Below are positions 20,416 through 59,300 of a stretch of DNA of 64,000 bases, one piece after another. Position 1 is the first letter of the stretch. Each line of letters starts with the position of its first letter. Origin of the DNA: Gammaproteobacteria bacterium. GTDB lineage: Bacteria; Pseudomonadota; Gammaproteobacteria; UBA12402. The translations under genes were made by a program, and so were the position numbers. Location: the NCBI GenBank assembly GCA_050123335.1, contig JASFHH010000005.1, positions 792-64,791 of the forward strand, read 5' to 3'. The notes beneath the pieces were generated by a model. It saw only the letters and a list, made by a program, of their open reading frames with translations. It had not been told where the DNA came from and did not search any database.

Positions 20416-20548
20416 GTTATAAATGCGTCTACCCTTATTTTTATTAATAATTATTAAAAAGTGTAGTATAGATTTCGTGGCAAGTCAAATTATATTTAAC
20501 CTTTTGGGTTAAATATAATTTAGAAAATTCAACGTTTTGGGAATTATT

Positions 20549-20577
20549 TGGTGGAGGCGGCGGGAATCGAATCTGCG
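20549..20577 (-). other. Partial copy of the tmRNA (ssrA) 3' end: att-site remnant of an integrated element
   Basis: tggtggaggcggcgggaatcgaatctgcg vs the authentic ssrA 3' end at 32061 (tggtggaggcggcgggaatcgaacccgcg). Preceded by ttttgggaattattt, shared with the 21686 copy. Confidence 0.6.
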
Positions 20578-21582: not shown

Positions 21583-21685
21583 TGTTAAACCTCTATTTTT
21601 AATTTTTAAAATTATCAAACGGTAGATTATCGCAAATAAAAAAATTAAAAACTAGCGTAAAAACTACGGGGTTTTGGGAATTATT

Positions 21686-21708
21686 TGGGCGGTGGGAATC
21701 GAACCCGC
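21686..21708 (-). other. Second partial tmRNA 3'-end copy (att remnant)
   Basis: gggcggtgggaatcgaacccgcg, preceded by the same ttttgggaattattt as the 20549 copy. Confidence 0.55.
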
Positions 21709-22469
21709 GTTGTAATTTGTTGATTTTGGCGGTACAGCTATTGATACTACTAAAATGAGAAGTCAGATAGTCTGAACTGATCGGGAATTCCGAATAGTTG
21801 AAATCTAATCCCGTCGAATTCGACGGGATTAGAATACCGCGTGGGGACAATTTGTTCCTTGGTAGCTTGATCAATTGTAGACAAATTGTCGACGGTTTGC
21901 ACTGATTAAATTTAAGCCAAACGTTTTGCCGACGTCGTCAAAATGGTATAAATTATTGAGTAGCAGTTATAAAGAAATTCTTTACAACTGATCTCATTCA
22001 TCTGAAGTTGCGAAACAACCTGTTTCGCAATTACGAAAAAATTGTACAGTTCAAATTTAAACCCATCGAATTCGATGGGTTTAAAATCAGTATTATTAAG
22101 TTGGTTCCAAAATACCCAAAAACTTAATCGTATTGCGATTTTGCAACTTGCTAAACTCAGAAAACAGAAGGTGTTTTAAAAAACCGAAAATACTTATTTA
22201 TTGAAAGTGATTATTAATTATTAATAAATTTAGTGAAATAAAGGATTGTATTTTCTAAATATTGAGGTAGAATAATCGGCCACTGGGAGATTTGTTCAAA
22301 ATCTCACCTGCCAAGAATAATAAAATCATAAAATAAGGTTCAGGCATTTCTCTTGAATTGCTGTCAGATATGGATATTCCTTTTGAACATGGAGCGCATT
22401 GGTCGCTTATTTTCTTAATAGAGTTAATTAGTAATCTAAAAAATTTAATAGTTTTAGGAGAAGAAATAT

Positions 22470-23195
22470 ATGTTTATTGTTGATGAAAAGCAAAAAAAAG
22501 AATGGAGAGGTATACAGTGTGTATTAACTTCGCCTATTGCGTTGTCCTATTTAATTTTGATGTTATTCGCGGTTTTTTTGGCAAATTTGTTTAATGATAT
22601 AAGAGTAATTCACTTAATGTGTGTAGCTGCCTGTTCAATTTCCGCTGGGTTTTTTGGTAGTAAATGGCAAGAGATTGTTAAACAAAGCGAAAGTGATGAA
22701 ACTATACTTTCGCGAGGACAAATGGCGATACGACGATTAAATAACTTATTATCAAATCTGAAAACAACTATTGACACAATTGAAAAATTTCTGGAATTTC
22801 AAATTGAAAATAGCGATAAAAACGCTTTAAAAATATGGTTAGAAAGCTTAGTAAGACAAGTAATTATGATACAAAAAGAAGGCGTAAGTGCTATTGAGGA
22901 TTGGGGTGATTTAATGCCAGATTATAATGTTAAAAAACATGTTGATCTTATAGGAGAATTACGTAGTGATGTTTTAAAAATTAAGAAAGAAAAAGAAGAA
23001 ATAGAAAAGAATAAAGTAATTGAGTCAGAAGAAAAAGAAAATAAAATAAAATATTTAACGAAAGAGTTAGAGATAAAAACAGCAGAGTTACAAGAAGAAC
23101 AACAAAAATTTAACGCATCGCTTTTTGGAGGATTAGATTTTGGTACAATTGATAAGAAAAGTTATTCTGAGCTGCTTTTAGATCTTAAACAATGA
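22470..23195 (+). CDS. Membrane-anchored coiled-coil protein (241 aa), first gene of a putative three-gene Abi-like module
   Basis: Two predicted N-terminal TM helices followed by a Glu/Lys-rich coiled coil. Layout is reminiscent of 2TM effector-associated domains. Confidence 0.45.
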   Translation: MFIVDEKQKKEWRGIQCVLTSPIALSYLILMLFAVFLANLFNDIRVIHLMCVAACSISAGFFGSKWQEIVKQSESDETILSRGQMAIRRLNNLLSNLKTTIDTIEKFLEFQIENSDKNALKIWLESLVRQVIMIQKEGVSAIEDWGDLMPDYNVKKHVDLIGELRSDVLKIKKEKEEIEKNKVIESEEKENKIKYLTKELEIKTAELQEEQQKFNASLFGGLDFGTIDKKSYSELLLDLKQ

Positions 23196-23229: not shown

Positions 23230-24057
23230 ATGAGCAAATGGGATCAAATTGTTACTAGTGATGTTAATGATAAAACAGAATTAAAAAATTTAGAAAATGA
23301 TTATGCAAGAGGAGAGTTTTTGCAGAATATGTTAATTAGTACGGCTACAGGCGGTCAATCTCAGAGAGATGATCAATACAAAAAGTTAAGAAGATATTTC
23401 ATGGAAAGTGAACATGCCAATTTATTGCCTTTTTGGGTTAAGAGTAATAGAGATCTGGGAAGTTTCTGGCCATTTATACAAGAACAATTTTCAACTTATC
23501 GAGAAAGACGCGCTTTTATAAGAACAGAATTTGATCGTTTATTGAGTGCACTAGAAGCAAATTGTACTTGTCTGATTGTTGAGTCTGTTAATTTAACAAT
23601 GCGGCAGATAACACATGCAAATTTAAATTCATATTGGAATAAGGCTATAAAAAGAGTAGGGACTGATCCAGAAGGAGCTATTACAATAGCTAAAACATTA
23701 TTAGAAGGGAGTTGTAAGGAGATACTAGATCGTCAATGTGTAGAATATGATGATGACAAAATAACATTACCAAAATTATATAAAATAACAGCCAAATCAT
23801 TACAACTACATTCTACGCAACATATTGAAAAAATTTTTAAGAGTATCTTAGGTGGTTGTTCTGCGATAGTTGGAGGACTTGGCAATGTTAGAAATGAGCT
23901 TGGTGATGCACATCATCGTAAAATAAAACCATTACGTAGACATGCTGAATTAGCTGTTAATATGGCGGGGTCGATGGCAAAATTTTTATTTCAAACTTTA
24001 GAAGACAGAATGGAAATTAAAAAAGGAAAAAAACAAAGCAACGATAACATTAATTAA
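23230..24057 (+). CDS. HEPN/Abi_C-domain protein (AbiJ-like abortive-infection family)
   Basis: C-terminal Rx6H HEPN-type motif within GLGNVRNELGDAHHRK. Overall resembles Abi_C (abortive infection C-terminus) proteins. Confidence 0.55.
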   Translation: MSKWDQIVTSDVNDKTELKNLENDYARGEFLQNMLISTATGGQSQRDDQYKKLRRYFMESEHANLLPFWVKSNRDLGSFWPFIQEQFSTYRERRAFIRTEFDRLLSALEANCTCLIVESVNLTMRQITHANLNSYWNKAIKRVGTDPEGAITIAKTLLEGSCKEILDRQCVEYDDDKITLPKLYKITAKSLQLHSTQHIEKIFKSILGGCSAIVGGLGNVRNELGDAHHRKIKPLRRHAELAVNMAGSMAKFLFQTLEDRMEIKKGKKQSNDNIN

Positions 24058-24816: not shown

Positions 24817-25124
24817 CAAAGCAAATATTGGCAACATATCATTGGTTGATCTGATATATATGGTTGGAGCAGATATTCTTTAGAGCGCAATATAAAGCAA
24901 GATTTGTTTGTTGTACAGTTTGTACCTCAAAATAAAGTATATAATTGCTAAGATGATATTTGCTATGGATGAATGCTATTAATGTTGTTAATATCTGGCA
25001 GAGAAAGATCAGAACTAGTATTTTAAAATCGTCGCTATCAATCTATAATTAGGTTTGGAATTCATAACTTAGTTAAGCGATATTGCTGTAAAATGTTGCC
25101 ACAAACACCTTCATTAGAGTATAA

Positions 25125-25364
25125 AGTGGTCAACCCACGTATTATTCGTCAAACACCGCAACTCATTTGTTGCGCGCAGACGTTGATGTCAATACAATTA
25201 GAGCTTGGTTTGGTCATGTCTCAATTAATACAACCAATATTTATGCTGAGGTTGATATTGAGATGAAGGCTAAAGCGTTGGCATTATGTGAGATAGTAGA
25301 AATTAAACAAAAACTAAATTGTAATTATAATAAAAGTTTAAAGGGTTTTTTAGATGCCTTTTAA
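25125..25364 (+). pseudogene. int: Tyrosine recombinase/integrase C-terminal fragment
   Basis: …TATHLLRADVDVNTIRAWFGHVSINTTNIYAEVD… is the catalytic tail of phage-type integrases (H-x-x-R…Y region). An upstream in-frame stop leaves only ~80 codons. Confidence 0.65.
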
Positions 25365-25392: not shown

Positions 25393-26309
25393 ATGATTAA
25401 AAATGTTCGCAAAAAAAACATCATTACTTAGCAAGAGTATACCTAAATGGTTTTTGTGATCAGAATAATATGGTTTGGTCATATCATAAAGATGATCTTT
25501 CAAAAATACATTGTCAAACACCAGACAATACAGCAATTGAAAAAAATCTTTATGCTGTGGATGGAATTGATGTTAATGTGTTTGAAGACTTTTTATCTGA
25601 CCAAATAGAAAGTCCAGCAGTAAATGCATTAAAGGAATTACAAAAAGGTCAACTGCCATCAAATAATGATAGACTTGTTTTAGCAAAATTTTTTGGCTTC
25701 ATGTTAGTACGAACTCCGTCATATAAGGCTTCTAATGAACAGCCATTTGAGCGTGAATCTAATATGTTACTAAAATTATACGTACAACATAAAGAGTGTT
25801 TTCAAAATTGGTGTAATAAATATGAAGGAATCAATAATCAACCTATAGCTAAAGATATTGAGCGACTAAGGCAAGAAATCTTAAATGGAAAATACATACT
25901 AAAACCACATCATAATTTTAGTCTTAATACTATAGGAAAATTGGGTTTAAGCATTGATTCTTATTTATTAAATATGAAATGGATAATGATAAAAGCACCC
26001 AAAGGTTATTTCTTTTTAACTTCTGACAATCCTGTTATTATCACAAATCCAGAGTGCAATGGATTTTATTCAACAGGATTAGGACAAGAAAACACTAGAG
26101 TTTTTATCCCAATTTCAAAGGAAATTGGTCTTCTTATGGTTAATTTAGATATTGATGGTTTTGACAATCAATCAATTGATAATAATAGTGAGATTGTAGG
26201 GCATATGAATAAAGCAATCATTCTGTTTGCATCCAAATTTATATTTAGTCATAAAAAAAACGACGACATTACACAATTAATAAAAAAAGTAACTGAAAAT
26301 AAAAATTGA
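25393..26309 (+). pseudogene. DUF4238-family protein, frameshifted in an A8 homopolymer near the 5' end
   Basis: ATG at 25393 (MIKNVRKK…) hits a stop after 12 codons. One extra or missing A in aaaaaaaa (25411-25418) restores …KKHHYLARVYLNGF…, the DUF4238 N-terminal HHY-x-x-x-YL motif. The downstream body contains the DUF4238 hallmark TSDNPV. Confidence 0.6.
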
Positions 26310-26479: not shown

Positions 26480-26940
26480 TTATTTACTTTAATTAGTTGC
26501 CCCCCAGACTGCCCCCCCCCTGAAATTGGCTTTGTTTTGCAAAAAACAAAGGTAGTTTATTCTATTTGCATTTTTCTTATCAATCTGAGATACTAAAAAC
26601 GTGCTAGTAACACACATGCAAAGCGGTAAAACTGCGTCCGATAACCGCGGTTTTTTTGTACCTAAATGTCGGGCGTTCGTTGGAATACAATACCCTTGGG
26701 AAATACAGCGAGCCACGCTTTGCAGTGGTTACTAACGCCTGACACCAATTAAATTTGGGATTATTAGTAAAATTGCAAAGGAGTAAAATCATGTCACATA
26801 TTTCAAAAAAATTATCTTTATTTATCAATAAGTTAATTGATGCAGAATAGTAAAAGTCTTACACAACAATCAGATGTTTTTCGGTGGTTAAAACATGCTC
26901 AATCATCCATAATTACTATGCGCAAGCTTTCTGAGGAGGA
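26480..26940 (+). other. Structured non-coding leader with poly-C tracts, long-range inverted repeats and a 19-codon ORF with strong SD
   Basis: gttgccccccagactgccccccccc (C6 and C9 tracts). The 22-nt arm gtgctagtaacacacatgcaaagcgg (26601-26626) is complementary to ccacgctttgcagtggttactaac (26712-26735). Hairpin ctttgttttgcaaaaaacaaag. aaggag-N7-ATG at 26791 gives MSHISKKLSLFINKLIDAE*. Locally GC-richer than its surroundings. Confidence 0.3.
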
Positions 26941-26942
26941 AA

Positions 26943-28289
26943 TTGATGACTGCGAAAATACATCAACCAGCGTGTGAATTGACTGAAGGCTGTTGGGTTG
27001 ATTTTAGAGAAATGGTGCAACAAGTTGAACCGGAATTGTTTGACATCATTGAGAAAATAAACCCAAATAAAGAGCACAAATTAATTAAAGCCAGATATTT
27101 ATATGGCGAGCAAATTACTGATCTTGGTACCATTTGTGTTCCAGATAAATTTGGCCGTTTAGTACGTTTAGATAACGCTAATGTCTCCAGTGAGTTGCAA
27201 GATCAATTGGGCTATTGTCCTACGCCGCTAGTTTTGCAATTAAAAAATGCTGGTGAGGTTTTTGTTGAAACAGAAGATCGCATCGCGCCATTAAATATTT
27301 TTATGCCGGGGGATATGTACGGGTTATATGAAATTTTAGTTCCGCTTTCTGGTTGTCCAGCCGTACCTTGTTGGAGTATTACATCCGGAGGCAGATCGGT
27401 ATTTTTAGCATCTAAAATTACCGATGCAATCGGTCACAAAAAATTGCGTAAGGAATTTGGTGTATCACCAGTTCCACCGAAAAACATCAAAGATCAATGG
27501 GCAACTATGAAAACTATTGCTAACCGAGGCAGAAAAGATAATCCTTGGTCATCAGAAATATTAATTTTTACCAAAGAATGGTTTACCGAAAAAGATGACG
27601 ATATTAATTGGATGAGATTTCAAAACTACTTGATGAAAAAAGCGTGGTGGCAATCTCGAAGTACTCGCGCACAAATTGAATATAGTATTATGTGGGAATC
27701 TTTTGCTAAAGCAGTGTGTGCTAGAAATTTAAAACCTAGTTCTTATATTGTTGATACAGTAAAACATTTAATGCTATTAACTGCTGGCACAACTCCCGGA
27801 TTTAAAGCGATTGATACCAGTGAAAACATCATGCCGTCAAAGATTGTAGAAAAAGCATATACGGACATTTACGGTTTAAAAGATTATGCGGCCATTATTA
27901 TGCATCCTCACGTAACTAAATTAAATAGTCATGATGAGCAAGTTTATTACTCGATGGCCTATCCTACTTTAATTTCCGGCACGCCGTCTATTCGTAAAAA
28001 CACAAACACCATGACTGAAATTCGTGACGTGCAGACATTGATGAAAATGCTTGAAAAAATATTATCTTCTTATGAAGATCGTGTTCATAATTCAATGAAA
28101 AACGTTAAGTTTGAATATTTTCATAGTGATGAAGATCGTTTTGGGGAAATCCTAAATAGCCATAGCATAACTAAAACTGATGCGGCAATCTTAAATATTT
28201 TAAACGAACGTTTTCCTGGTAAAAAATTTCCTTCATACGGTTCATTTTTCAGAGGGTGCATTAGAATAAGCAGGAAGAATGTTGGTTAA
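26943..28289 (+). CDS. Hypothetical protein (448 aa), convergent partner of the rSAM-Nudix gene
   Basis: Long ORF with no recognisable motifs. Its 3' end overlaps the 3' end of the opposite-strand rSAM-Nudix gene by 48 nt. Confidence 0.5.
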   Translation: MMTAKIHQPACELTEGCWVDFREMVQQVEPELFDIIEKINPNKEHKLIKARYLYGEQITDLGTICVPDKFGRLVRLDNANVSSELQDQLGYCPTPLVLQLKNAGEVFVETEDRIAPLNIFMPGDMYGLYEILVPLSGCPAVPCWSITSGGRSVFLASKITDAIGHKKLRKEFGVSPVPPKNIKDQWATMKTIANRGRKDNPWSSEILIFTKEWFTEKDDDINWMRFQNYLMKKAWWQSRSTRAQIEYSIMWESFAKAVCARNLKPSSYIVDTVKHLMLLTAGTTPGFKAIDTSENIMPSKIVEKAYTDIYGLKDYAAIIMHPHVTKLNSHDEQVYYSMAYPTLISGTPSIRKNTNTMTEIRDVQTLMKMLEKILSSYEDRVHNSMKNVKFEYFHSDEDRFGEILNSHSITKTDAAILNILNERFPGKKFPSYGSFFRGCIRISRKNVG

Positions 28290-29978
28290 AAACATTTTTT
28301 TAGTTGTAGGAAATAATTGTAACGTTAACAAATTCTCTGGCGAAAAATATTTGTATTCTGCAATTTCTCGCTTGTCAATTTTGTATTTGTTTTTACAGCC
28401 ATTGTTTTCTGCAATCCACCAATGCAACTCATCTACATCGTAATCAGCATTAGATGTGCCTATTTTTTTGATGGGAATTACCGCTAAACCAAGCTCCTCA
28501 TGAGCTTCTCTGATAACTGCTGCTTCCTCTGTTTCACCTTGCTCAATTTTGCCATGAATGGGTGCCCAATGATCTTTGTATGGCTTTTTATTTTGTTTTA
28601 CCAACAGATATTTTCCGTTTTGTATAATAACTATAACTACACCCGAACGTTTTTTATCGGATACACTTGCCACATTAACTATGTCACCTTGCATATAACG
28701 TTCATATTGTTTTTTAGTTAGTGGAATTTGCATAATTTTGTTAGCATTCATACAAGCTTTATCATTGGATTTTTCATTGGTTAAATAGACATGCGCTTTA
28801 GTAAAATTAAAATTGGCGTTTTGCTTTAGTAAAGCTACGATGTTTGCAAAACTAATGTTATTTTCCTTATCGATGCAAAATTGACAGTTTTTTGGAATGT
28901 TTTTTTGAAAATCTTGGATGTGGCTATTATTTTTCAATAAAGTTGCTATAGATTGAGTTTTATCATTTATTGTGCCTATTTTAGCTTTTGGCATTATACC
29001 ATTGCGAGCTAGGCAACATAATTGTAATGATAAATCGGCTAATATGATAAATCTTAATCGTGATATCCAGCAGAAATTAAAATCATCTTTTGGTTTGAAA
29101 GATATTCCATATTGTTTTTCAATAATAAAATCTCTTTTATCTTTGATGTTTTGTTTGAATATATTTATTTGATTTTCAACAAATGGAATGATTTCAGGGT
29201 GATCATCGTAAACTTTTCTACAAATATTTTTTCTAATAGCAATCCAGTTAGCCCCCACATCATACATATCACACATAAATTTACTGATGTTGCGATAATT
29301 TTCCGGAAGCATAATAAAGGTAGCACCAATAAATAATTCTTGTTCTCTATTAAATTTAATAGCCTCAACATGAACCGTTTTTATTTTCTTAATCAAGTTT
29401 TCGTAATTATGTGCCTTATCATTTGATTTATGAACTTGATATCTGGAATTATTATCAAAAGAATCAACACTAATTCGTAAATGATGAACGTAGTTAGCAA
29501 TAGTTTTAATAATATTGCCTTGTAATAAATCACCATTCGTTTCGACAGTAATTTTTAATTTTAAATCGGCTAAATATTTTATAATTTCGATAATTTTAGG
29601 ATGATTTAGAGGATCACCACCACCAGTTAATCTAACACTTTTTCCACCTAAATTTTTGAAATCATCAAAGATAGATTTAAGTTGGTCTAATGGCAATGTT
29701 GAATTTAACTTGGAATTTAATTTCTTTGAAAAACACATGATGCAATTATTTGAACAGTTACTAGTAACATCAATATCTAATCTTATAGGCGATAAAGTTT
29801 GATTAAAATATGCGCTTTTTATCGCTTTTATCCACTCATCTAATTGCTCAGGAAACATCTTAGCGTGATTTTGGTAAAAAACATATGTCTTAGCATTACA
29901 TATAGCGCATATTGCATTCCATTTGCCGTATTGTCGATTAACAAGAATATTTTCGTGGTAATTGAAAACCATCTTCAT
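28242..29978 (-). CDS. Radical SAM (SPASM/twitch-like) enzyme fused to a C-terminal Nudix hydrolase domain
   Basis: CX3CX2C motif (CSNNCIMC) with a downstream GGGDPL SAM-binding motif. Additional Cys-rich region (CWISRL…LCCLARN…CQFC). Nudix box GKIEQGETEEAAVIREAHEELGL at aa ~470-495. An N-terminal CxxC pair is also present. Confidence 0.75.
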   Translation of the reverse strand: MKMVFNYHENILVNRQYGKWNAICAICNAKTYVFYQNHAKMFPEQLDEWIKAIKSAYFNQTLSPIRLDIDVTSNCSNNCIMCFSKKLNSKLNSTLPLDQLKSIFDDFKNLGGKSVRLTGGGDPLNHPKIIEIIKYLADLKLKITVETNGDLLQGNIIKTIANYVHHLRISVDSFDNNSRYQVHKSNDKAHNYENLIKKIKTVHVEAIKFNREQELFIGATFIMLPENYRNISKFMCDMYDVGANWIAIRKNICRKVYDDHPEIIPFVENQINIFKQNIKDKRDFIIEKQYGISFKPKDDFNFCWISRLRFIILADLSLQLCCLARNGIMPKAKIGTINDKTQSIATLLKNNSHIQDFQKNIPKNCQFCIDKENNISFANIVALLKQNANFNFTKAHVYLTNEKSNDKACMNANKIMQIPLTKKQYERYMQGDIVNVASVSDKKRSGVVIVIIQNGKYLLVKQNKKPYKDHWAPIHGKIEQGETEEAAVIREAHEELGLAVIPIKKIGTSNADYDVDELHWWIAENNGCKNKYKIDKREIAEYKYFSPENLLTLQLFPTTKKMFLTNILPAYSNAPSEK

Positions 29979-31946: not shown

Positions 31947-32060
31947 AAAAATTGCTCCAAGTTGGAAATTAGTAGAGAAGATTATTAGCTGCGTAAAATT
32001 ATAAGAAGTTGATCTTTTAATGCAAGCTGTTTAATTATAGATTGTTATGGAAAGGCAGTT

Positions 32061-32417
32061 TGGTGGAGGCGGCGGGAATCGAACCCGCGTCCGCGAACTC
32101 TCCGCCATCGGTTCTACATGCGTAGCTAATCATTAAATTTCATTATTTGCTGCCCGATTAGCAGGGATCACAAATAACTAGCCTAAGTTAAATTTAGCGG
32201 TATTGCCTTAGGCGCACTTTACCGCGAGCTTATGAAATATGACCATCAGATTCAAGCGCATAAGCACACTTGGGTGATGGGCTGTGCCTGTTTAAGCGGC
32301 GACAGCGTAAAGTTCGTCGTTTGCGACTACTTTGTTGCAGCATGATTTACGAGGTTAAGCTACGTCCTCGGCATGCCCCTTTGGTTTTGCAATCCACGTC
32401 GAAGCCGGGTCGCCCCC
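32061..32417 (-). ncRNA. ssrA: tmRNA (ssrA)
   Basis: The 5' end GGGGGCGACCCGGCTTCGACGTGGATTGC… pairs with the 3' end …GCGGGTTCGATTCCCGCCGCCTCCACCA. Internal tag reading frame GCAAACGACGAACTTTACGCTGTCGCCGCTTAA gives ANDELYAVAA*. Confidence 0.85.
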
Positions 32418-41317: not shown

Positions 41318-42424
41318 CTACGATAAAAAATCACCTAATTCTAGTTGTTGATTTAGTTCTTCAGGTTGAAATCGCACTCCAATACCGATCAGTCTTACTG
41401 GCTGTTGCTGGCGGTTTATGCCTTCAATTAATAATTGTTCATATGTTTTTAAATTCGTATTTGTGGAAATACATTCAACGGTTGTTTGGGTAAAATCATG
41501 GAATTTTATTTTAATGAATTGATTTTTGATTTTTAAGTTAGGATCTAAGCGGCGAGTTAATCTGGTAATTAATTTTGGTAATTGTGCTAGGCATTCAGCT
41601 TTTGTAGATAAATCTTTTGTAAAAGTTTCTTCAACACTGAGTGATTTGCGGGCGCGGTTTGGTTGAACTTCGCGATGATCGATGCCGCGGCAAAGTTCGT
41701 ATAATTTTGCTCCAAAATTACCGAAATGTTTTATTAAATCTGCTAAAGATAATTTTTGTAAATCAGCGCAAGTTTTGATATTCATAGTTGCAAATTTTTT
41801 TGCAGTGACTTTGCCAATGCCAAATATTTTTTCTATTGGTAACGTTCGCATAAAATTTGCAACTTCATTTGGAATAATTACAAATTGGCCGTTTGGTTTG
41901 TTCCAATCGCTTGCAATTTTAGCTAGGAGTTTATTAGGTGCGATACCGGCGGATGCAGTAAGTTTTAGTTGCCAATTAATTTTATCGCGAATACTTTTGG
42001 CAATCATAGTAGCGCTGCCGCAATAATGTTTGCAGTTGGTTACATCTAAATATGCTTCGTCGAGGGATAAAGGTTCCACTAGATCAGTAAAGGTTAAAAA
42101 GATTTCGTGAATAATTTTAGATGCTTCACGGTATTTTGACATATTTACTGGTAATAAAATTAGTTTTGGACATGCACGTAATGCACGAGCGGTTGCCATA
42201 GCAGAATGTACTCCAAATTTTCTGGCGATATAATTGCAAGAACAAATTACTCCACGCTCATCAGGATTACCTCCGACTGCAATAGGTTTATTTTTTAATT
42301 TTGGGTTGTCGCGTATTTCAATGGCTGCGTAGAAGCAGTCCATGTCAACATGAATTATTTTTTTACCAGCAGAACTTACGCGAAAAGCGATCTGCTTTGT
42401 TAAAAGCTCGCTCAAGTCAGTCAT
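41318..42424 (-). CDS. dinB: DNA polymerase IV
   Basis: …KIIHVDMDCFYAAIEIRDNPKLKNKPIAVGG… is the DinB N-terminus with Y-family palm motifs, 368 aa. Confidence 0.9.
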   Translation of the reverse strand: MTDLSELLTKQIAFRVSSAGKKIIHVDMDCFYAAIEIRDNPKLKNKPIAVGGNPDERGVICSCNYIARKFGVHSAMATARALRACPKLILLPVNMSKYREASKIIHEIFLTFTDLVEPLSLDEAYLDVTNCKHYCGSATMIAKSIRDKINWQLKLTASAGIAPNKLLAKIASDWNKPNGQFVIIPNEVANFMRTLPIEKIFGIGKVTAKKFATMNIKTCADLQKLSLADLIKHFGNFGAKLYELCRGIDHREVQPNRARKSLSVEETFTKDLSTKAECLAQLPKLITRLTRRLDPNLKIKNQFIKIKFHDFTQTTVECISTNTNLKTYEQLLIEGINRQQQPVRLIGIGVRFQPEELNQQLELGDFLS

Positions 42425-47969: not shown

Positions 47970-49172
47970 TTATAATGGCTTTATTTTGCTAGTTTTACAA
48001 CTATGTAGTTCAATATCACGTAACAATTTTTTATGTAAGCTCGCTAGCAACCCTATATAATCTTTTTGAAACAACTCACTTAAAATCCAATATTTTTTAT
48101 AGTTCAGAATTTTGTAAGTATCATTGTTTGAATTTAATAATAATGTTAGAAATCTTTCGGCAGATAATATATCTTTTTTTCTTATTTTAAATGCTATAGA
48201 AGCAAAGATAAGTGATTGAACTCTCCCAAAGTTTTTATAGAATCTTTTGCTTAAAAATAATTTTGTATACCAATTTCTCGTAAAGTTCCCATTATTTTTT
48301 ATGCGAAGTGAAAATGATGTAAAGTTTTGTTCTTTCATCTCATTAAACACATTTCTTATTTCATAAGTTTTTTCTATACTAGAATATAATTTCTTTCCCA
48401 TGTAAAAATTATCAAAACAATACTTATTGTTAGGGTTAAAATTATTTTTTGTCTTTTTATTATAGTGTATGACTTCTTGGTGATTTCCGTAAAATTCTGG
48501 GATAAAAGTGGCTATATACAAAAATAAATCGGTAGGCAATGACCCATTTAATAAAAGCGCGACACTAACAACATATTTAAACATTTCTTTTTTAAAGTTT
48601 TGGGTTGTTTTAAGAAAGCTTAATTCATTTATAATATTTTTTAATTTTCTATCATATTTATTTAATTTAGTTAAAAATGTAACATTACTTCTATGACAAA
48701 TATTGTTGTCTTTAATAAGTTTATGTAGTTGCTTTGCTGAATATAACAATCTACTTGGATTAATTGAATAAAATCTTACATTATATGGTAATTTATTATA
48801 ATAAAGTAAGCTGTAATCACATTGATGTGTTGTAATTTCAACAGTGGTGCTGATATTGCCAACTTTTTTTACTACTTTTGTTCCATCTTTATATTCTTTT
48901 ATGCATTCTGAAAAATTGTTATCTATCATTTCATTGTTGATTGATAAAAAAGGCATTAATCTATCTAATTCAAAGACTTTACACGTATATATAACTGGTG
49001 GGTGTGTGGTTACCGTATTATATGAAGGTATAAAAGTAATGGTTTTGGATACGCCAAAAATCATTTTATGTTTTTTACATGTATGTAAAATTTCATCCCA
49101 TATTAGCATATATTCTTCTTTAATTTTTTCATATTTCTTAATTTCTTTTTTTTGTTTCAAATGGAATAACAT
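47970..49172 (-). CDS. Hypothetical Asn/Lys/Tyr-rich protein (400 aa), islet cargo
   Basis: ORF only. Very AT-rich codon usage and no recognisable domain. Confidence 0.45.
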   Translation of the reverse strand: MLFHLKQKKEIKKYEKIKEEYMLIWDEILHTCKKHKMIFGVSKTITFIPSYNTVTTHPPVIYTCKVFELDRLMPFLSINNEMIDNNFSECIKEYKDGTKVVKKVGNISTTVEITTHQCDYSLLYYNKLPYNVRFYSINPSRLLYSAKQLHKLIKDNNICHRSNVTFLTKLNKYDRKLKNIINELSFLKTTQNFKKEMFKYVVSVALLLNGSLPTDLFLYIATFIPEFYGNHQEVIHYNKKTKNNFNPNNKYCFDNFYMGKKLYSSIEKTYEIRNVFNEMKEQNFTSFSLRIKNNGNFTRNWYTKLFLSKRFYKNFGRVQSLIFASIAFKIRKKDILSAERFLTLLLNSNNDTYKILNYKKYWILSELFQKDYIGLLASLHKKLLRDIELHSCKTSKIKPL

Positions 49173-50912: not shown

Positions 50913-52685
50913 TTAATGATATGTTCCTGGTTGTAATGTTACAGTATCTTTTGATTTTTCCTCGGAGATATTTTCAAAATTGACGTTACTTTGTGAAGTT
51001 TCTTCAATGATGGTAGTGCATCGATTAGAAATTTCAGACCAATTAAAATTTTTAAGATTAGTGTGAACTTGTCCCCACATTTTATCAATTTCAGCAGGTG
51101 AAGCAATAGTTAAGAAAGTTATTAATTTTCCAACGATTGTCATCACTTTATTTTGAATACTTTTTGTAAAAGGTAGGGTATCTTGGGCAAAATTAAAAGA
51201 GCCTTCTATTGAACCAGCAGTACTAGTGAGAAGAGTTGCAATGCATACAAATATATATAAGACTAATTGTTCTGGAACAGGGGTTATCGCAATTGTGGTA
51301 ATGCCAAGAAGTAATCCACAAAGTATAGATAATGCTAGACATATTAACGTTCCAAATTTTGACAAGGCTGTTTTTGTATTGCAATTTGTACTATCATTTT
51401 TATCGGGTTTATGGCACCTGATGAAATTAAGAGCGCTTTTTAATAATCTAAAAATTGTTAAAGTATAAAAAATAAAAAATAAAAATTCCGAGCCTAGTCC
51501 TATACAATATCCTAAAATTTTTGGTACTGTATAACCTATCATCGCCCAAAAATCTGTAAAAGCGTTTTCTGCTTGTTCTCGAAAGCCTAAGGTTCCAGGG
51601 ATTATTATAATTGCGCTAGAAAGCATTAATGAATAAGTCGTTACAGTTTTATACAAGGGAATATCTTTATTGAGAAGTCGTGCTATAAATTCAGCCTTTT
51701 GTTTTTTTGACAAGCATTTTGAGTGATTGTTAATTATATCAACAAGATCAAGTAACTTACTTTTGTGTAGCGCATCAAAATTTCTGCAAATACCTTTTAG
51801 TAGAAAACTGCGTTTTTGTTTATTGGTTAAGTTAGTTGGAATTTGTTTGCGTTGTATACAGCTAAAGAAACTATATTTATTTTCTCCAAGCTTCCTGCAT
51901 TTTTTACACAAATAGCTATATATAGTGCTCATAAAATTGTCAAAAGAATTAATCAATAAAGGCAGATTATCACTCAGTAAATGTTCAACACCGCTTGCAA
52001 TGGCTATTCCCCCAGGTATTCCTAAAGGGAAGGCAATGCTAAATTTAATTGCATCGGAAGAGATTAAAGAGACAGGCAGTCCTAATTTAATAAAATTAGC
52101 AAAAGTAAGCATAGGAAAGAAAATTCGAAGAGTTCCTCCTAAATATTCATCTACTTTTTTTAAAATAGCCAAAGGAAAACTTCTAATTTTTTTCAGGTAT
52201 TTTTTACAATTTATATGTTTATTAATTTCATACTCAACTTTCAATTTAGTATAATAGGTGCTCAATGGTGCTTGAGCTAATACAATAATTACGCTGCCTA
52301 ATATTCCACATGAAATTAATAAACTTTTGGCAGTCGGATCTTTGACTTGAAAAATACCTAATGGGCTTGGATTATCAGATTTCACAACTATTTTATCAAG
52401 AAAAAGGAAAAATAGACTGGGTAAGCTAAACAAAATTGAAGAGGCTGCTATAAATCCCCCTGTATATGCGGTTAAACCGTTACATATTTTATAACTAATA
52501 GAAATACAGTCTTTTTTATGATGTGTACAACAACATATTTCAATTTTTGTATCTTTGGTTTTTATATTGTAGATAATTAGTGGTTTTGTTTCTTCAGTAT
52601 TTTTTTTTGAAGAAGTTGTTTTACATCTATTAGAATCGCAGTAATACGATAATAGTCGGACACTTTTTTCAATGCCTTCATACAT
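50913..52685 (-). CDS. Large polytopic membrane protein (590 aa), hypothetical
   Basis: ORF with >8 hydrophobic segments and a Cys-rich N-terminus (CCCTHHKKDC). No family recognised. Confidence 0.45.
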   Translation of the reverse strand: MYEGIEKSVRLLSYYCDSNRCKTTSSKKNTEETKPLIIYNIKTKDTKIEICCCTHHKKDCISISYKICNGLTAYTGGFIAASSILFSLPSLFFLFLDKIVVKSDNPSPLGIFQVKDPTAKSLLISCGILGSVIIVLAQAPLSTYYTKLKVEYEINKHINCKKYLKKIRSFPLAILKKVDEYLGGTLRIFFPMLTFANFIKLGLPVSLISSDAIKFSIAFPLGIPGGIAIASGVEHLLSDNLPLLINSFDNFMSTIYSYLCKKCRKLGENKYSFFSCIQRKQIPTNLTNKQKRSFLLKGICRNFDALHKSKLLDLVDIINNHSKCLSKKQKAEFIARLLNKDIPLYKTVTTYSLMLSSAIIIIPGTLGFREQAENAFTDFWAMIGYTVPKILGYCIGLGSEFLFFIFYTLTIFRLLKSALNFIRCHKPDKNDSTNCNTKTALSKFGTLICLALSILCGLLLGITTIAITPVPEQLVLYIFVCIATLLTSTAGSIEGSFNFAQDTLPFTKSIQNKVMTIVGKLITFLTIASPAEIDKMWGQVHTNLKNFNWSEISNRCTTIIEETSQSNVNFENISEEKSKDTVTLQPGTYH

Positions 52686-54935: not shown

Positions 54936-56172
54936 TTTGTAGGGGACAATTTTGTATGAATAAAGAAATAACTCGCTGATTTTACGGGAAAATGTATAAT
55001 CTCATTTTTGAATATTTGAAGTTTAAAAGGAGGTTATATGAATCCCACCAGCGAGTTAGTGAAGATTTTAAGTAAAAATCTCGATTGGCACAAGTCTAGA
55101 TTGAATTGTTTTGTAAAAATGTTGCTATCGTTGTTCGTTGTAAGAACAGTTAATCTGCGAGAATTAGCGGTAGCATTCGATAGTAATGCGCAACTTGGTT
55201 CGCGATATAAAAGGATAAAAAGGTTTTTTGCGCAATTCAAAATTAAGCAAGAAGTTTTAGCCAAATTAATTTTCGAATTATTTTTTTTTAAAATCAGATA
55301 AAATTTATTTAACAGTGGATCGCACAAACTGGTGGTGGGGTAAATCCAGCATTAATATTTTAACTTTAGGAATTGCGCATGAAGGAATTTCGATTCCATT
55401 ATTTTGGAATTTACTTAAGGGCACCAGTTCGACAGGCGATGATCAGTTTGAAATTGTAAAAAGATTTGTAAAAGTGTTTGGTAAAGATTGTATTGCTGGC
55501 GTTTTGGCAGACCGAGAATTTGCGAATAAATATTTTTTTAGGAATTTGGTTAAAGCCAAAATACCCTTTTATATAAGGGTTAAAGAAGGATCGAAAGCAA
55601 ATATATTTTATGAAAAAACATTTAAGGTTAAGAAATTATTTAACCAGCTAAAACAGAAATCTCAGATGTCATATATTCAGCCAGTTACAATTCATGGACA
55701 AAAATTATTTGTAGCGGCAGGAAGATCTGAGTCAGGTGAATTATTACTTGTGGCAACGAATCAATACAAAGCAAAAAATGCGGTATCAATATATTTACGC
55801 AGATGGGAAATTGAGGTTTTATTTCAAAGTTTAAAAAGCAGAGGATTTAATTTTGAAGATACACATATTACCAAGCGTGAAAGAATTGAGACTTTGATGT
55901 CCTTACTTGTTGTTGGTTTTAGTTGGGCGCATAAAATTGGTGAATGGCGTGATACTAAAAAACCTGTTGTTTTTAATAAATATCGTGATGGCAGAAGACC
56001 GCAATATAGTTTCTTTCGTTATGGATTAGATTTTATTCGTGATGTGATTTTACATGTAGCCAGACTTAAAAAACAGTTTCGGCGGTGTTTGAAGTTGCTT
56101 TTTTTTCCTCCGAAACCACTCAAAACTTCAATCCAGGAAACAATATCATGATCTTTTGTTCCCTACAGAGAC
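54936..56172 (+). mobile_element. IS4-family insertion sequence (~1.24 kb) with imperfect terminal inverted repeats
   Basis: IRL ctttgtaggggacaattttg (54936-54955) vs the reverse complement of IRR gtctctgtagggaacaaaag (56153-56172). Encodes a DDE transposase. Confidence 0.7.
55038..56151 (+). pseudogene. IS4-family DDE transposase split by a +1 frameshift at a T10 run
   Basis: The two ORFs 55038..55301 and 55315..56151 are in different frames, joined across tttttttttt (55283-55292). The C-terminal YLRRWEIEVLFQSLKSRGFNFE matches the IS4 Y-R-E-K signature. Confidence 0.7.
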
Positions 56173-56301
56173 TTTTTTAAGTTTTTTTGTTTTTGTTAAT
56201 AAAACCTTAAGAATTAGTTGGTATTATCAACGCAAGAAACCAATAGCAGTTTGTTTATCATAATTGCTATTTTAAAAACTATAATTAACAGGAACTTTAA
56301 A

Positions 56302-59300
56302 ATGAAAATGCATAAAATTTTAAGAAAGCTAATCGAAGATTATTTCATTCATCATTCATTAAATATATCAAATGTAAACACAATTAGAAAATCGTTAATC
56401 ACAGCATTGTCGAAACACATTAAAACATTAAAATTTTACGATGCTCCGGCATTTAAATTTTCAGATCCAAAAAAACCAAACTTAAAAGAATTTACAGATG
56501 AATTAAATAAGCTAATAGGAAATTTTCTTGTGTCTCAGAATGAGCTTTCTACCATTATAAATAAAATAGAAAATGAAACTAAAACAAAGAAAATTTCAAG
56601 TGATGATGATTTGGTTAATTTTTTGGAGGACCTTCACAAAAATCACCAAAAATACTTAGATAGATTATCCCCTCAAATACTTGAAATAATTACGTCTAAA
56701 AGACCTAATTATGATCTTAATCTTTTATTCAGGCAAAAAATCAAGCTAACCACTAAATATTTTTTATTTATGGCCCTAAAAAGCAGGAAAAATTTTATCG
56801 CGTGGGTATATGAAAATCAAAAAGTGACGTTTGATCTTGGGATGATGTTACAAAACAAAGGTTTTCCTTGTCTTGCAAAGAAAATTTATCAAGAACTTCT
56901 TTCGTTGAATGAGCAAGAAATTAAGATGTCCTTCTTATCCAAATCACAAAAGCCCCAGTTAGCACCAATGTTTATTTATCTTGATTTCAATAAATTAATA
57001 GAAAAACTGGATCATAATGCATGTAAAGCCACAGCTTTTTTTATCGAACAAATGGCTGAATCAATTTTGTTCAATAAATCTATCGACGCATGGATCCATT
57101 TTCATCAAAGGTCTTCTGAAGAAGAACCTTTTTCTAACATCTATACACCTATCGAAAATCGAAACAACTATAATTTAGTTTCTAAACAATTGCGAAATCT
57201 CTACACAATTATATCGCCAATATATAATGGTAATCGTACGTTTTATGATATATGGAATAATAACCTGGTAATAAAAAACTGTTTTGATTTATCTAATCGT
57301 CTGGCAAAAAGGATAATCGAAAAACTAATACTTTCACTTTATGATAAATACCAAATAGTTCGTATAAAACGAGGTGAAATTAATGGCAGAATAGCCAAGA
57401 TGATACAAAATCTTTATTTTTTAACTAATTCAAAAAGTGACAATTTAATTGCTAGAATAAAAAATTACAGTCGTAATCAAATAATTGATCAAGCAATGAA
57501 AGAAAAAGATTTATTTGTGGGCAAAGATGAAAAATGCCTATATTCGGAAGTTAAAACAGAAATTACATATTTACTTAGAGATCTGGCTTTTCTGCTTAAA
57601 ATTATATATAGAACGCCTACTAAATTAGATCCTTGCACAAAAGTATTGGATGATTCGGAAATTAATAATTATATATTAGCAATAGAAGCAATTATTAAAG
57701 GCGATCTTAATGCGTTAAAAGAAGTTTTTAATATTAAATTTTTAACATGTTATATTACTCCTGAAATTGCACAAAAGAAAAAGAAATTAAATATTCCTTT
57801 TTTGGGCGCAGAAGGATGGACATTATTGCATTGTGCTTTTGATAATGCATTTATCGGGAAAAAGAAAAAAGCATACGTTAAAATTTTAGAATTTTTATAT
57901 GAAAAAATTGAAACATATGAATTAAATTTTATTTTTGATGCGTTTTCCACAAGGTTAGATTTTTCTAACATTAAGGAAAAAAAACCACTGTCAAAATATT
58001 TGCAGTCATATTATTTCTATAACTTTCCTGAATATTCTCGTAGGCGTATTAATACAAAATTATTGTCATCATCCGATGCGCAGAAGTTGTATAAAAAAAT
58101 AACACCACTTTACTGCCTATCTGATAAATGGAGTGATGCATATAATAAACTCATATCAAAATACCATCTTGGATCATTATTAATAGAAAAACGTGAATAT
58201 AAACAAGCTCGTGATAATTTTAAATTTATTATAGACGTTTATGAAAAAAATAATCAAAAAAATCAAAGAGCGAAGTATAACGATAAATATTTAAACCTTG
58301 TCGCAAAATCATACTATTTTTTGGGAATATGTAATTTTAGATTAAACAAACCATCAATGACTGATGATATGATCAATAAACTTGACAACGCGAGTCGTTA
58401 TATAAAAAGCACAACAATTATGTTTCGTCGTGCTATGCAAGTTGCAAAGAAAATCAAATCTAAAACAAACGATACTTATAGGTTTTTAAGTAGCTGTTAT
58501 TGTACTTTAAGCGCTTACTATAGACAAAAGGCTCAAAATGGTAGTGCTGTTAAATCTCTATGTTTAGCAAGAAAACTATTAGAAGAAGCCTTATCAACAG
58601 AACAAAATCGCACATTAAGAAGCCTTGATTTTTGGCAACTGCGGTCGATAGCAAATGAACAGTATCAAATATTGTACAATTCATCCGTCAAAGAAGGTAT
58701 GTCAGAGTTACAAGTCCTTGTAGTGAGCTTAATGGATATTGAAATGTCAGCTATTACACCAAAAAAAATGTTTTCCGATGTTATTTATGATGTTAATAAA
58801 AACGAACGTATAGAAATTATGGAAAATATTTTACTCTGGTCAGAATTTAATAAAAGTCTCCTTGTGCGCAGATTTGGCACAGGAAAAAATTATAATGTAT
58901 TAATTAATAAATTAGGAAATATCTGGGAAAAGCTCGCATTTGAAAGGGTATATGAAAAAGTAATTAATCTCAATCAAAAAGTAAAAGATAAATTACCGCT
59001 GCAAATTGCGATGGAAGCAAATAATGCAAAAGCAGTTACACTATTATTAAAGTATGGAGCAGATATTAATAAATTGAAAGACTTTGATCCAATACAATGG
59101 GCAATTGATAATAATCATCATAAAATAGTTACTTTATTTGTGTTAAAAGGATTTAAGATCGATTATGAATTTAAAACGGATTATTATGATGATAGCTCTC
59201 CAAGAAATCTGCTTGATTATGCTATTCAGCAAAATAATAGTGAGCTGATTAATATTTTATTAAGTAAACAACATAAAGTAGACAGGATAAACATAAAAAA

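Follow-up and report, generated by a model that had tools for sequence, protein, structure and literature searches.

A one-base lesion in an adenine tract interrupts a DUF4238 gene, probably a young pseudogene, in an apparently decaying ssrA island of an uncultured gammaproteobacterium

An interrupted gene of the DUF4238 family (Pfam PF14022) lies at positions 25393 to 26309 on the forward strand of the 64,000-nt stretch of DNA analysed here, referred to as the window. An earlier note, made from the letters of this DNA, had placed a run of eight adenines (A8) at 25411-25418, shortly after ATG 25393, and had proposed that the DUF4238 frame is broken there; coordinates and frames were both confirmed. 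The locus comprises the following features.

25304..25331, + strand: promoter-like site TAAACA-16-TATAAT, recognised by consensus match alone (10 of 12 positions), 62 nt upstream of ATG 25393
25393..25431, + strand: original start codon and 12-codon frame-0 remnant (MIKNVRKKNIIT, then stop); this ATG corresponds by homology to the start codon used by the intact relative in contig L002
25401..26309, + strand: open -1 frame with the whole DUF4238 domain, from KKHHY to TGA
25411..25418, + strand: A8 tract, in which 1 nt has been deleted; relatives share the in-frame state, A9 (KKK)
25413..25419, + strand: heptamer A_AAA_AAC in frame 0; a -1 slip leads into the DUF4238 frame
25470..26309, + strand: 279-aa ORF predicted by gene callers (P0001), which starts at an internal conserved Met and is devoid of the HHY...FCDQ block

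Following the start codon (25393-25395), the sequence reads ATT AAA AAT GTT CGC, then the A8 tract, which has C on either side, and then CATCATTAC. Translation in frame 0 gives MIKNVRKKNIIT and ends at TAG 25429-25431. The premature stop described previously therefore stands, whereas the product given for it, MIKNVRKK, is too short, the frame having 12 codons and not 8. The -1 frame is open from 25401 to TGA 26307-26309 and encodes ...KKHHYLARVYLNGFCDQNNMVW...; between the stop that precedes it (25398-25400) and ATG 25470 it holds no ATG, GTG or TTG start and, by reading of the sequence, no CTG, ATT, ATC or ATA either. No uninterrupted ORF runs from the start codon into the domain, the HHY frame being startless and frame 0 closing after 12 codons. 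When the length of the tract was varied in silico, A6, A9 and A12 gave ORFs of 304, 305 and 306 codons, respectively, and A7, A8, A10 and A11 led to a stop after 12-22 codons. Between the tract and ATG 25470 lie 17 codons, HHYLARVYLNGFCDQNN, with 8 of the 57 residues that are invariant in the five closest family members, and the relation between the two frames is therefore not a chance one. Apart from the tract no second lesion was found in the gene, and the repaired protein keeps all 57 of these residues.

The product of the A9 variant, 305 amino acids long, matches the Pfam DUF4238 model with residues 9-289 over profile positions 1-280 of 281 (131 bits, cut-off 27) and the PADLOC model DUF4238-Pers with 8e-20. 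The expectation that a shift by one nucleotide within the tract yields a full-length DUF4238 protein was thereby borne out, and these matches over the full profile demonstrate that the domain is truly split by a frameshift at or beside the tract and is not a chance similarity. The N-terminal [KR]HHY..YL..F block and the TSDNP motif are both present, the block in the -1 frame relative to the ATG. The locus is a broken new member of the known DUF4238 family. A homologue from E. coli, a single-gene system of a P2 hotspot, alone protects against phage T7 (Rousset et al. 2022, PMC9122126). With this anti-phage system (DUF4238-Pers) the gene shares a full-length domain, the KK[KR]HHY...YL..F and TSDNP motifs, a length of about 300 amino acids and the location in a mobile defence island; it differs in being out of frame after codon 8 and in its low identity (about 22-25%) to the plasmid-borne members that were found, all 20 of which match as a single in-frame piece. 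An AlphaFold model of the protein reached a mean pLDDT of 87.6 and a pTM of 0.83, and a comparison of this model with solved structures revealed no neighbour.

The gene is located next to the tmRNA gene ssrA, in a region with the following features.

20547..20571, + strand: exact repeat (25/25 nt) of the ssrA 3' end, comprising its last 23 bases and two more; outer boundary of a second island remnant
21688..21710, + strand: repeat of the ssrA 3' end (22/23 nt); inner island boundary
23230..24057, + strand: AbiJ-like abortive-infection gene (Abi_C domain), inner island
24994..25364, + strand: tyrosine-recombinase remnant, corresponding to residues 214-337 of a 337-aa integrase from the three-recombinase cluster of contig L003
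28242..29978, - strand: radical-SAM and NUDIX fusion gene, matching the PADLOC pVip HMM, inner island
32059-32083: copy of the ssrA-end repeat at the tmRNA gene
32061..32417, - strand: tmRNA gene (ssrA), the 3' end of which is the island attachment site

The region adjoins ssrA at its 3' end, and direct repeats of that end mark its limits. The two distal copies also share further flanking similarity, and the repeats indicate two tandem islands at ssrA, an inner one of about 10.4 kb and an outer remnant of 1.1 kb. Four notable genes were recognised in the inner island, namely the AbiJ-like gene, the DUF4238 gene, the radical-SAM/NUDIX fusion and a response regulator. A Bro-N gene is the sole gene of the outer remnant, and an HTH-peptidase M78 gene lies just beyond both ssrA-end repeats. 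An extension of the frame upstream of the Bro-N gene at A7 21638-21644 was considered and rejected, as the extension is non-coding and leads into the att repeat. The earlier suggestion that the DUF4238 gene sits in a defence island agrees with the AbiJ-like and pVip-HMM-matching genes in the same island and with the activity of the E. coli homologue against T7 (PMC9122126).

The recombinase remnant directly upstream of the DUF4238 gene consists of the last 124 codons; the N-terminal part is gone and the rest carries an internal frameshift. No intact integrase was found, and none of the island ORFs scanned matched the Pfam model Phage_integrase. The truncated and frameshifted state of this adjacent integrase indicates that the island has lost its integrase and is decaying. 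In a related metagenome-assembled genome (MAG), GCA_023480665.1 (L003, 6352-9910 and 10001-10960; L004), a DUF4238 relative adjoins three adjacent tyrosine recombinases, a cluster resembling a recombinase-in-trio element; one of these recombinases has a homologue in the window, of which just the tail survives, in the opposite relative orientation. Two further observations concern the DNA downstream of the DUF4238 gene. A gene at 26943-28289 (+), whose 447/448-aa product matched nothing in Pfam or PADLOC, is convergent with the radical-SAM and NUDIX gene at 28242-29978 (-) and overlaps it by 48 nt; the two may form a two-gene defence module. The stretch 26668-26751 (+) resembles sRNA-Xcc1 (RF02221), an sRNA associated with integrons and mobile elements, over the full length of the Rfam model, with a score below the gathering threshold (48.4 bits, threshold 53, E 3e-6).

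The state of the tract in relatives was used to judge which form is ancestral. The closest relative, P0002 on contig L002, has 65% protein identity and 75% DNA identity, its start codon is homologous to ATG 25393 and its upstream region aligns with the window. It begins ATG ACT AAC AAA ATT CGA AAG AAG AAG CAT CAT TAT, that is MTNKIRKKKHHY. Four further relatives with 48-57% identity show the following tracts.

L086: CGC AAA AAA AAG CAT CAT, equal to the window sequence plus one G
L088: AGA AAG AAA AAA CAC CAT
L089: AAT AAG AAA AGG CAC CAT
L003: ACT AAG AAA AGG CAC CAC

All five of these closest relatives (48-65% identity, on AT-rich contigs with 31-40% GC) are in frame, and each has nine nucleotides of Lys/Arg codons with at least one G inside, against eight nucleotides in the window. 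A 1-nt deletion in the window follows from this comparison. The lost base may have gone either by slippage in an A9 run or by loss of the G from an A8-G run. Across these five relatives, the comparison of tract length among orthologues, proposed earlier as a check, gives no support to a switch.

A wider survey covered 80 DUF4238 loci from metagenomes, and a simple motif search found the N-terminal block in 54 (L003 and 53 of the 80). The usual N-terminus of the family in this survey is a short leader followed by K-K-[KR]-H-H-Y, as in MDKKRHHY, MNKKRHHY and MKKKRHHY; family-wide it can be written M-x-KK[KR]HHY, with R-K-K-K-H-H in the closest clade. One surveyed locus, L085, carries an in-frame A8 at the equivalent place. 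A start-less N-terminus occurred in one of the 53 interior loci, away from a contig end and unexplained (L019). The identity to the outgroup P0003 is 57.0% for the repaired window protein and 57.8% for the intact P0002 and gives no sign of an accelerated rate. As the rest of the gene is undamaged and its divergence from the outgroup resembles that of the intact P0002, the lesion appears to be recent on the scale of this clade. A protein-based scan of GTDB genomes for relatives gave no confirmed match, and a search of metagenome and genome contigs for the exact flanks with a variable tract length gave no match. Exact look-up of the A9 and A6 proteins among about 15 billion proteins found neither of them and hence no in-frame allele. 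Look-up of the flanking genes for sister strains led from one gene to a JGI contig only and from the other to nothing.

Statistics of homopolymers and codons within the window show how ordinary the tract is. Synonymous codons were shuffled 200 times among the 44 long ORFs of the window (47 kb of coding sequence). Coding A8 runs numbered 19, compared to 17.8 +/- 3.0 expected, and A8 tracts are accordingly ordinary here and no mark of a contingency locus. Coding runs of A>=9 numbered 2, compared to 7.3 +/- 1.9 expected, and none of the 200 shuffles was as low. In many genomes, selection against A/T runs becomes apparent once they reach nine bases (Baranov et al. 2005, PMC1088944), and the depletion from nine bases in the window reproduces this threshold. 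An in-frame A9 allele therefore belongs to an unstable and avoided class, and its loss by slippage is unsurprising. Lys is encoded by AAA in 86% of cases in the coding sequence of the window, and 0 of the 20 Lys-Lys-Lys triplets in the 44 long ORFs are written AAAAAAAAA. The conserved Lys-Lys-Lys motif and the AAA bias together suffice to explain why a poly-A run stands 18 nt downstream of the start, without any selection for a switch. Four intact genes of the window have the same layout.

200-1435, + strand: intact gene with an A8/A9 run in the first 6% of its coding sequence
22470-23195, + strand: intact gene with an A8/A9 run in the first 6% of its coding sequence
47970-49172, - strand: intact gene with an A8/A9 run in the first 6% of its coding sequence
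50913-52685, - strand: intact gene with an A8/A9 run in the first 6% of its coding sequence

None of these four genes had a Pfam match. The earlier note had called a homopolymer at the N-terminus the classic configuration for ON/OFF switching; the KK[KR]HHY motif, the AAA bias and the four intact genes of like layout account for it here. The 3' ends of genes are also rich in long runs, with 8 of 27 runs >=8 falling in the last 12% of coding sequence.

Other runs in the window deserve mention in their own right. C6 at 26500-26505 and C9 at 26512-26520, 12 nt apart, are the only G/C runs >=6 in the whole window, which has 33% GC. They lie about 200 nt downstream of the DUF4238 stop codon in a spacer of 630 nt, C9 being expected about 0.01 times by chance (an estimate); poly-C is a more typical contingency tract than A8, and no significant RNA fold was found at these runs. 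An IS4-family DDE transposase gene (55040-56151, +) is split at T9 55281-55289, and deletion of one T joins the two ORFs into one of 370 aa (PF01609, 1.4e-9). Two explanations are considered, a second slippage pseudogene or an IS gene expressed via 9T transcriptional slippage (Baranov et al. 2005, PMC1088944). Also in the window are a gene for a 1,361-aa ankyrin-repeat protein at 56218-60303 (+), which hints at a host-associated lifestyle, and a gene for a DinB/Pol IV-family polymerase at 41318-42424 (-).

The results are best explained by a young pseudogene, or a revertible OFF allele that has no evolved switch, in a decaying island, and we consider this reading probable. The ancestral gene would have begun M-x-x-x-x-R-K-K-K-H-H-Y with nine bases of Lys codons. 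In an AT-rich genome these codons could have turned into an A-rich run, A9 or A8 followed by G as in L086, from which one base would have been lost; we infer replication slippage as the simplest cause. Ribosomes starting at ATG 25393 would terminate after 12 codons, the HHY...FCDQ block, which is the most conserved part of the family and confidently folded in the model, could not be translated in frame, and the gene would be functionally OFF as A8. Some full-length protein may still be made if RNA polymerase slips on A8 or if ribosomes slip by -1 on A_AAA_AAC, a leak that is likely small and incidental, and reversion from A8 to A9 is possible in principle. Since leak and reversion are inherent to any A8 tract, neither would be an evolved feature.

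The suggestion of a fresh pseudogene, one of two options in the earlier note, fits well with the single lesion, the retention of 57 of 57 invariant residues, the unaccelerated divergence from P0003 and the decayed integrase that adjoins the gene. Among known phenomena, the slippage pseudogenes or "authentic frameshifts" at homopolymers in AT-rich bacteria (PMC1088944; PMC3711429) fit best and show no essential difference, as they are likewise singletons at A/T runs of 8-9 nt with homology on both sides and with potential for partial rescue at the mRNA level. In the scheme of Antonov et al. 2013 (PMC3711429), singleton frameshifts are indel mutations or sequencing errors, and phase variation is assigned where frameshifted homologues with repeats form clusters. 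Being a singleton with no such cluster, the locus belongs to the class of indels or errors and not to that of phase variation.

The second option of the earlier note, an evolved phase-variable switch, found no positive support and is unlikely in our judgement. Slippage between A8 and A9 would here toggle a costly, possibly abortive-infection-type defence gene. The single lesion, with start codon and promoter-like site both intact, would equally suit a contingency gene in its OFF phase, and the tract lies in the 5' coding region, where one added base restores the full ORF. To be ON, the gene would need A9, a length that this coding sequence otherwise avoids, and this could be read as the unusual retention of a mutable tract. 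Defence genes are moreover known targets of phase variation, among them the mod genes of restriction-modification systems and pglX of BREX. However, the homopolymer is interrupted by G in each of the five close relatives, N-terminal frameshifts do not recur among the 53 interior loci apart from the one start-less case, A8 is not over-represented, and eight bases are short among poly-A contingency tracts. Four intact genes share the layout, the conserved motif accounts for the position, the tract has equal length in three assemblies that possibly derive from one sample, and no ON allele occurs among the roughly 15 billion proteins. Contingency loci built on simple sequence repeats, such as poly-G/C in type III mod genes and poly-A in Mycoplasma p78 (cited in PMC3711429), are alike in that a repeat in the 5' coding sequence sets the frame, with A8 corresponding to OFF and A9, A6 or A12 to ON; the tract studied here differs in the respects just given. 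That the A-tract is a locally evolved contingency switch, with a small A9 subpopulation or slippage-derived protein providing defence and most cells spared the cost, seems quite improbable. If true, an uncultured AT-rich gammaproteobacterium would provide the first case of phase variation in a DUF4238 system, and this system might belong to a wider set of accessory genes with N-terminal A8/A9 tracts.

A sequencing or assembly error, by which the organism would truly have A9 and an intact gene, is likewise an unlikely explanation. Indel errors occur most often at homopolymers, errors are frequent among singleton frameshifts that have BLASTp and Pfam validation (Antonov et al. 2013, PMC3711429), and the second frameshift in the window also falls at a long run, T9 55281-55289. 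On the other hand, about 113 of the 115 runs >=7 in the window, including 27 runs >=8, fall in long ORFs that are intact and would be disrupted by a change of one base; the 1,361-codon ORF alone carries 11 runs >=7 and stays intact. Over 5,391 bp, A8 included, the Logan assembly of SRR11697952 agrees with the window at 100% identity, so that two different assemblers gave the same tract, and a contig from JGI (sample 3300042731) has the same 106-base spacing from the upstream fragment ORF to the 279-codon ORF. The other homopolymers in intact ORFs and the second assembly with the same A8 thus make an error unlikely; a small residual chance is due to the three assemblies, which agree in tract length and may share reads from one sample or project. 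Furthermore, both broken genes are mobile or accessory and stand in decaying contexts. The 279-aa product is recorded from JGI and Logan and not from NCBI, where neighbouring proteins of the same MAG are present, which is consistent with treatment as a pseudogene in the NCBI annotation.

Programmed recoding would supply low levels of full-length DUF4238 protein by -1 frameshifting on A_AAA_AAC or by transcriptional slippage on A8 and would so keep a toxic effector scarce; we regard this as very unlikely. The heptamer does lie in frame 0, a -1 slip on it gives MIKNVRKKNHHY..., exactly the DUF4238 frame, and IS1 uses the identical heptamer. Slippery A/T runs can also allow a disrupted ORF to be rescued in the mRNA, where RNA polymerase can insert an extra A (Baranov et al. 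2005, PMC1088944). Yet the heptamer is an automatic by-product of A8 followed by C, the relatives have no frameshift, and the frame-0 product is a peptide of 12 amino acids with no plausible function. A stimulatory downstream structure was not found (fold z = +0.31 and -0.46 versus shuffled sequence), nor was a Shine-Dalgarno-like element seen in the 18 nt upstream on reading the sequence. In these respects, the lack of a stimulator, of conservation and of a functional upstream product, the locus differs from IS1-type frameshifting and from 9A/9T transcriptional slippage in IS genes.

That the 279-aa protein from ATG 25470 serves as a functional, N-terminally shortened DUF4238 is scarcely credible, although gene callers predict it and its ORF is otherwise intact: its start is an internal Met conserved in relatives (NNMVW) with no Shine-Dalgarno-like sequence before it, and the product, being deprived of nine invariant residues (K7, H10, H11, Y17, L18, F21, C22, D23 and Q24, both His included) and of the segment lost in the OFF state, which is modelled as the first strand and helix of the fold (pLDDT about 95 for residues 11-30), is unlikely to work.

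The locus should accordingly be annotated as a frameshifted DUF4238 pseudogene at 25393-26309 and not as a 279-aa hypothetical protein. Beyond annotation it has little importance unless switching between A8 and A9 is proven, in which case it would be a notable phase-variable defence of the abortive-infection type. Within a single 64-kb window, the avoidance threshold between eight and nine nucleotides of poly-A is visible, and the preferred reading as a young pseudogene would make the DUF4238 gene an example of how defence genes decay in an immobilised island via slippage at runs of Lys codons.
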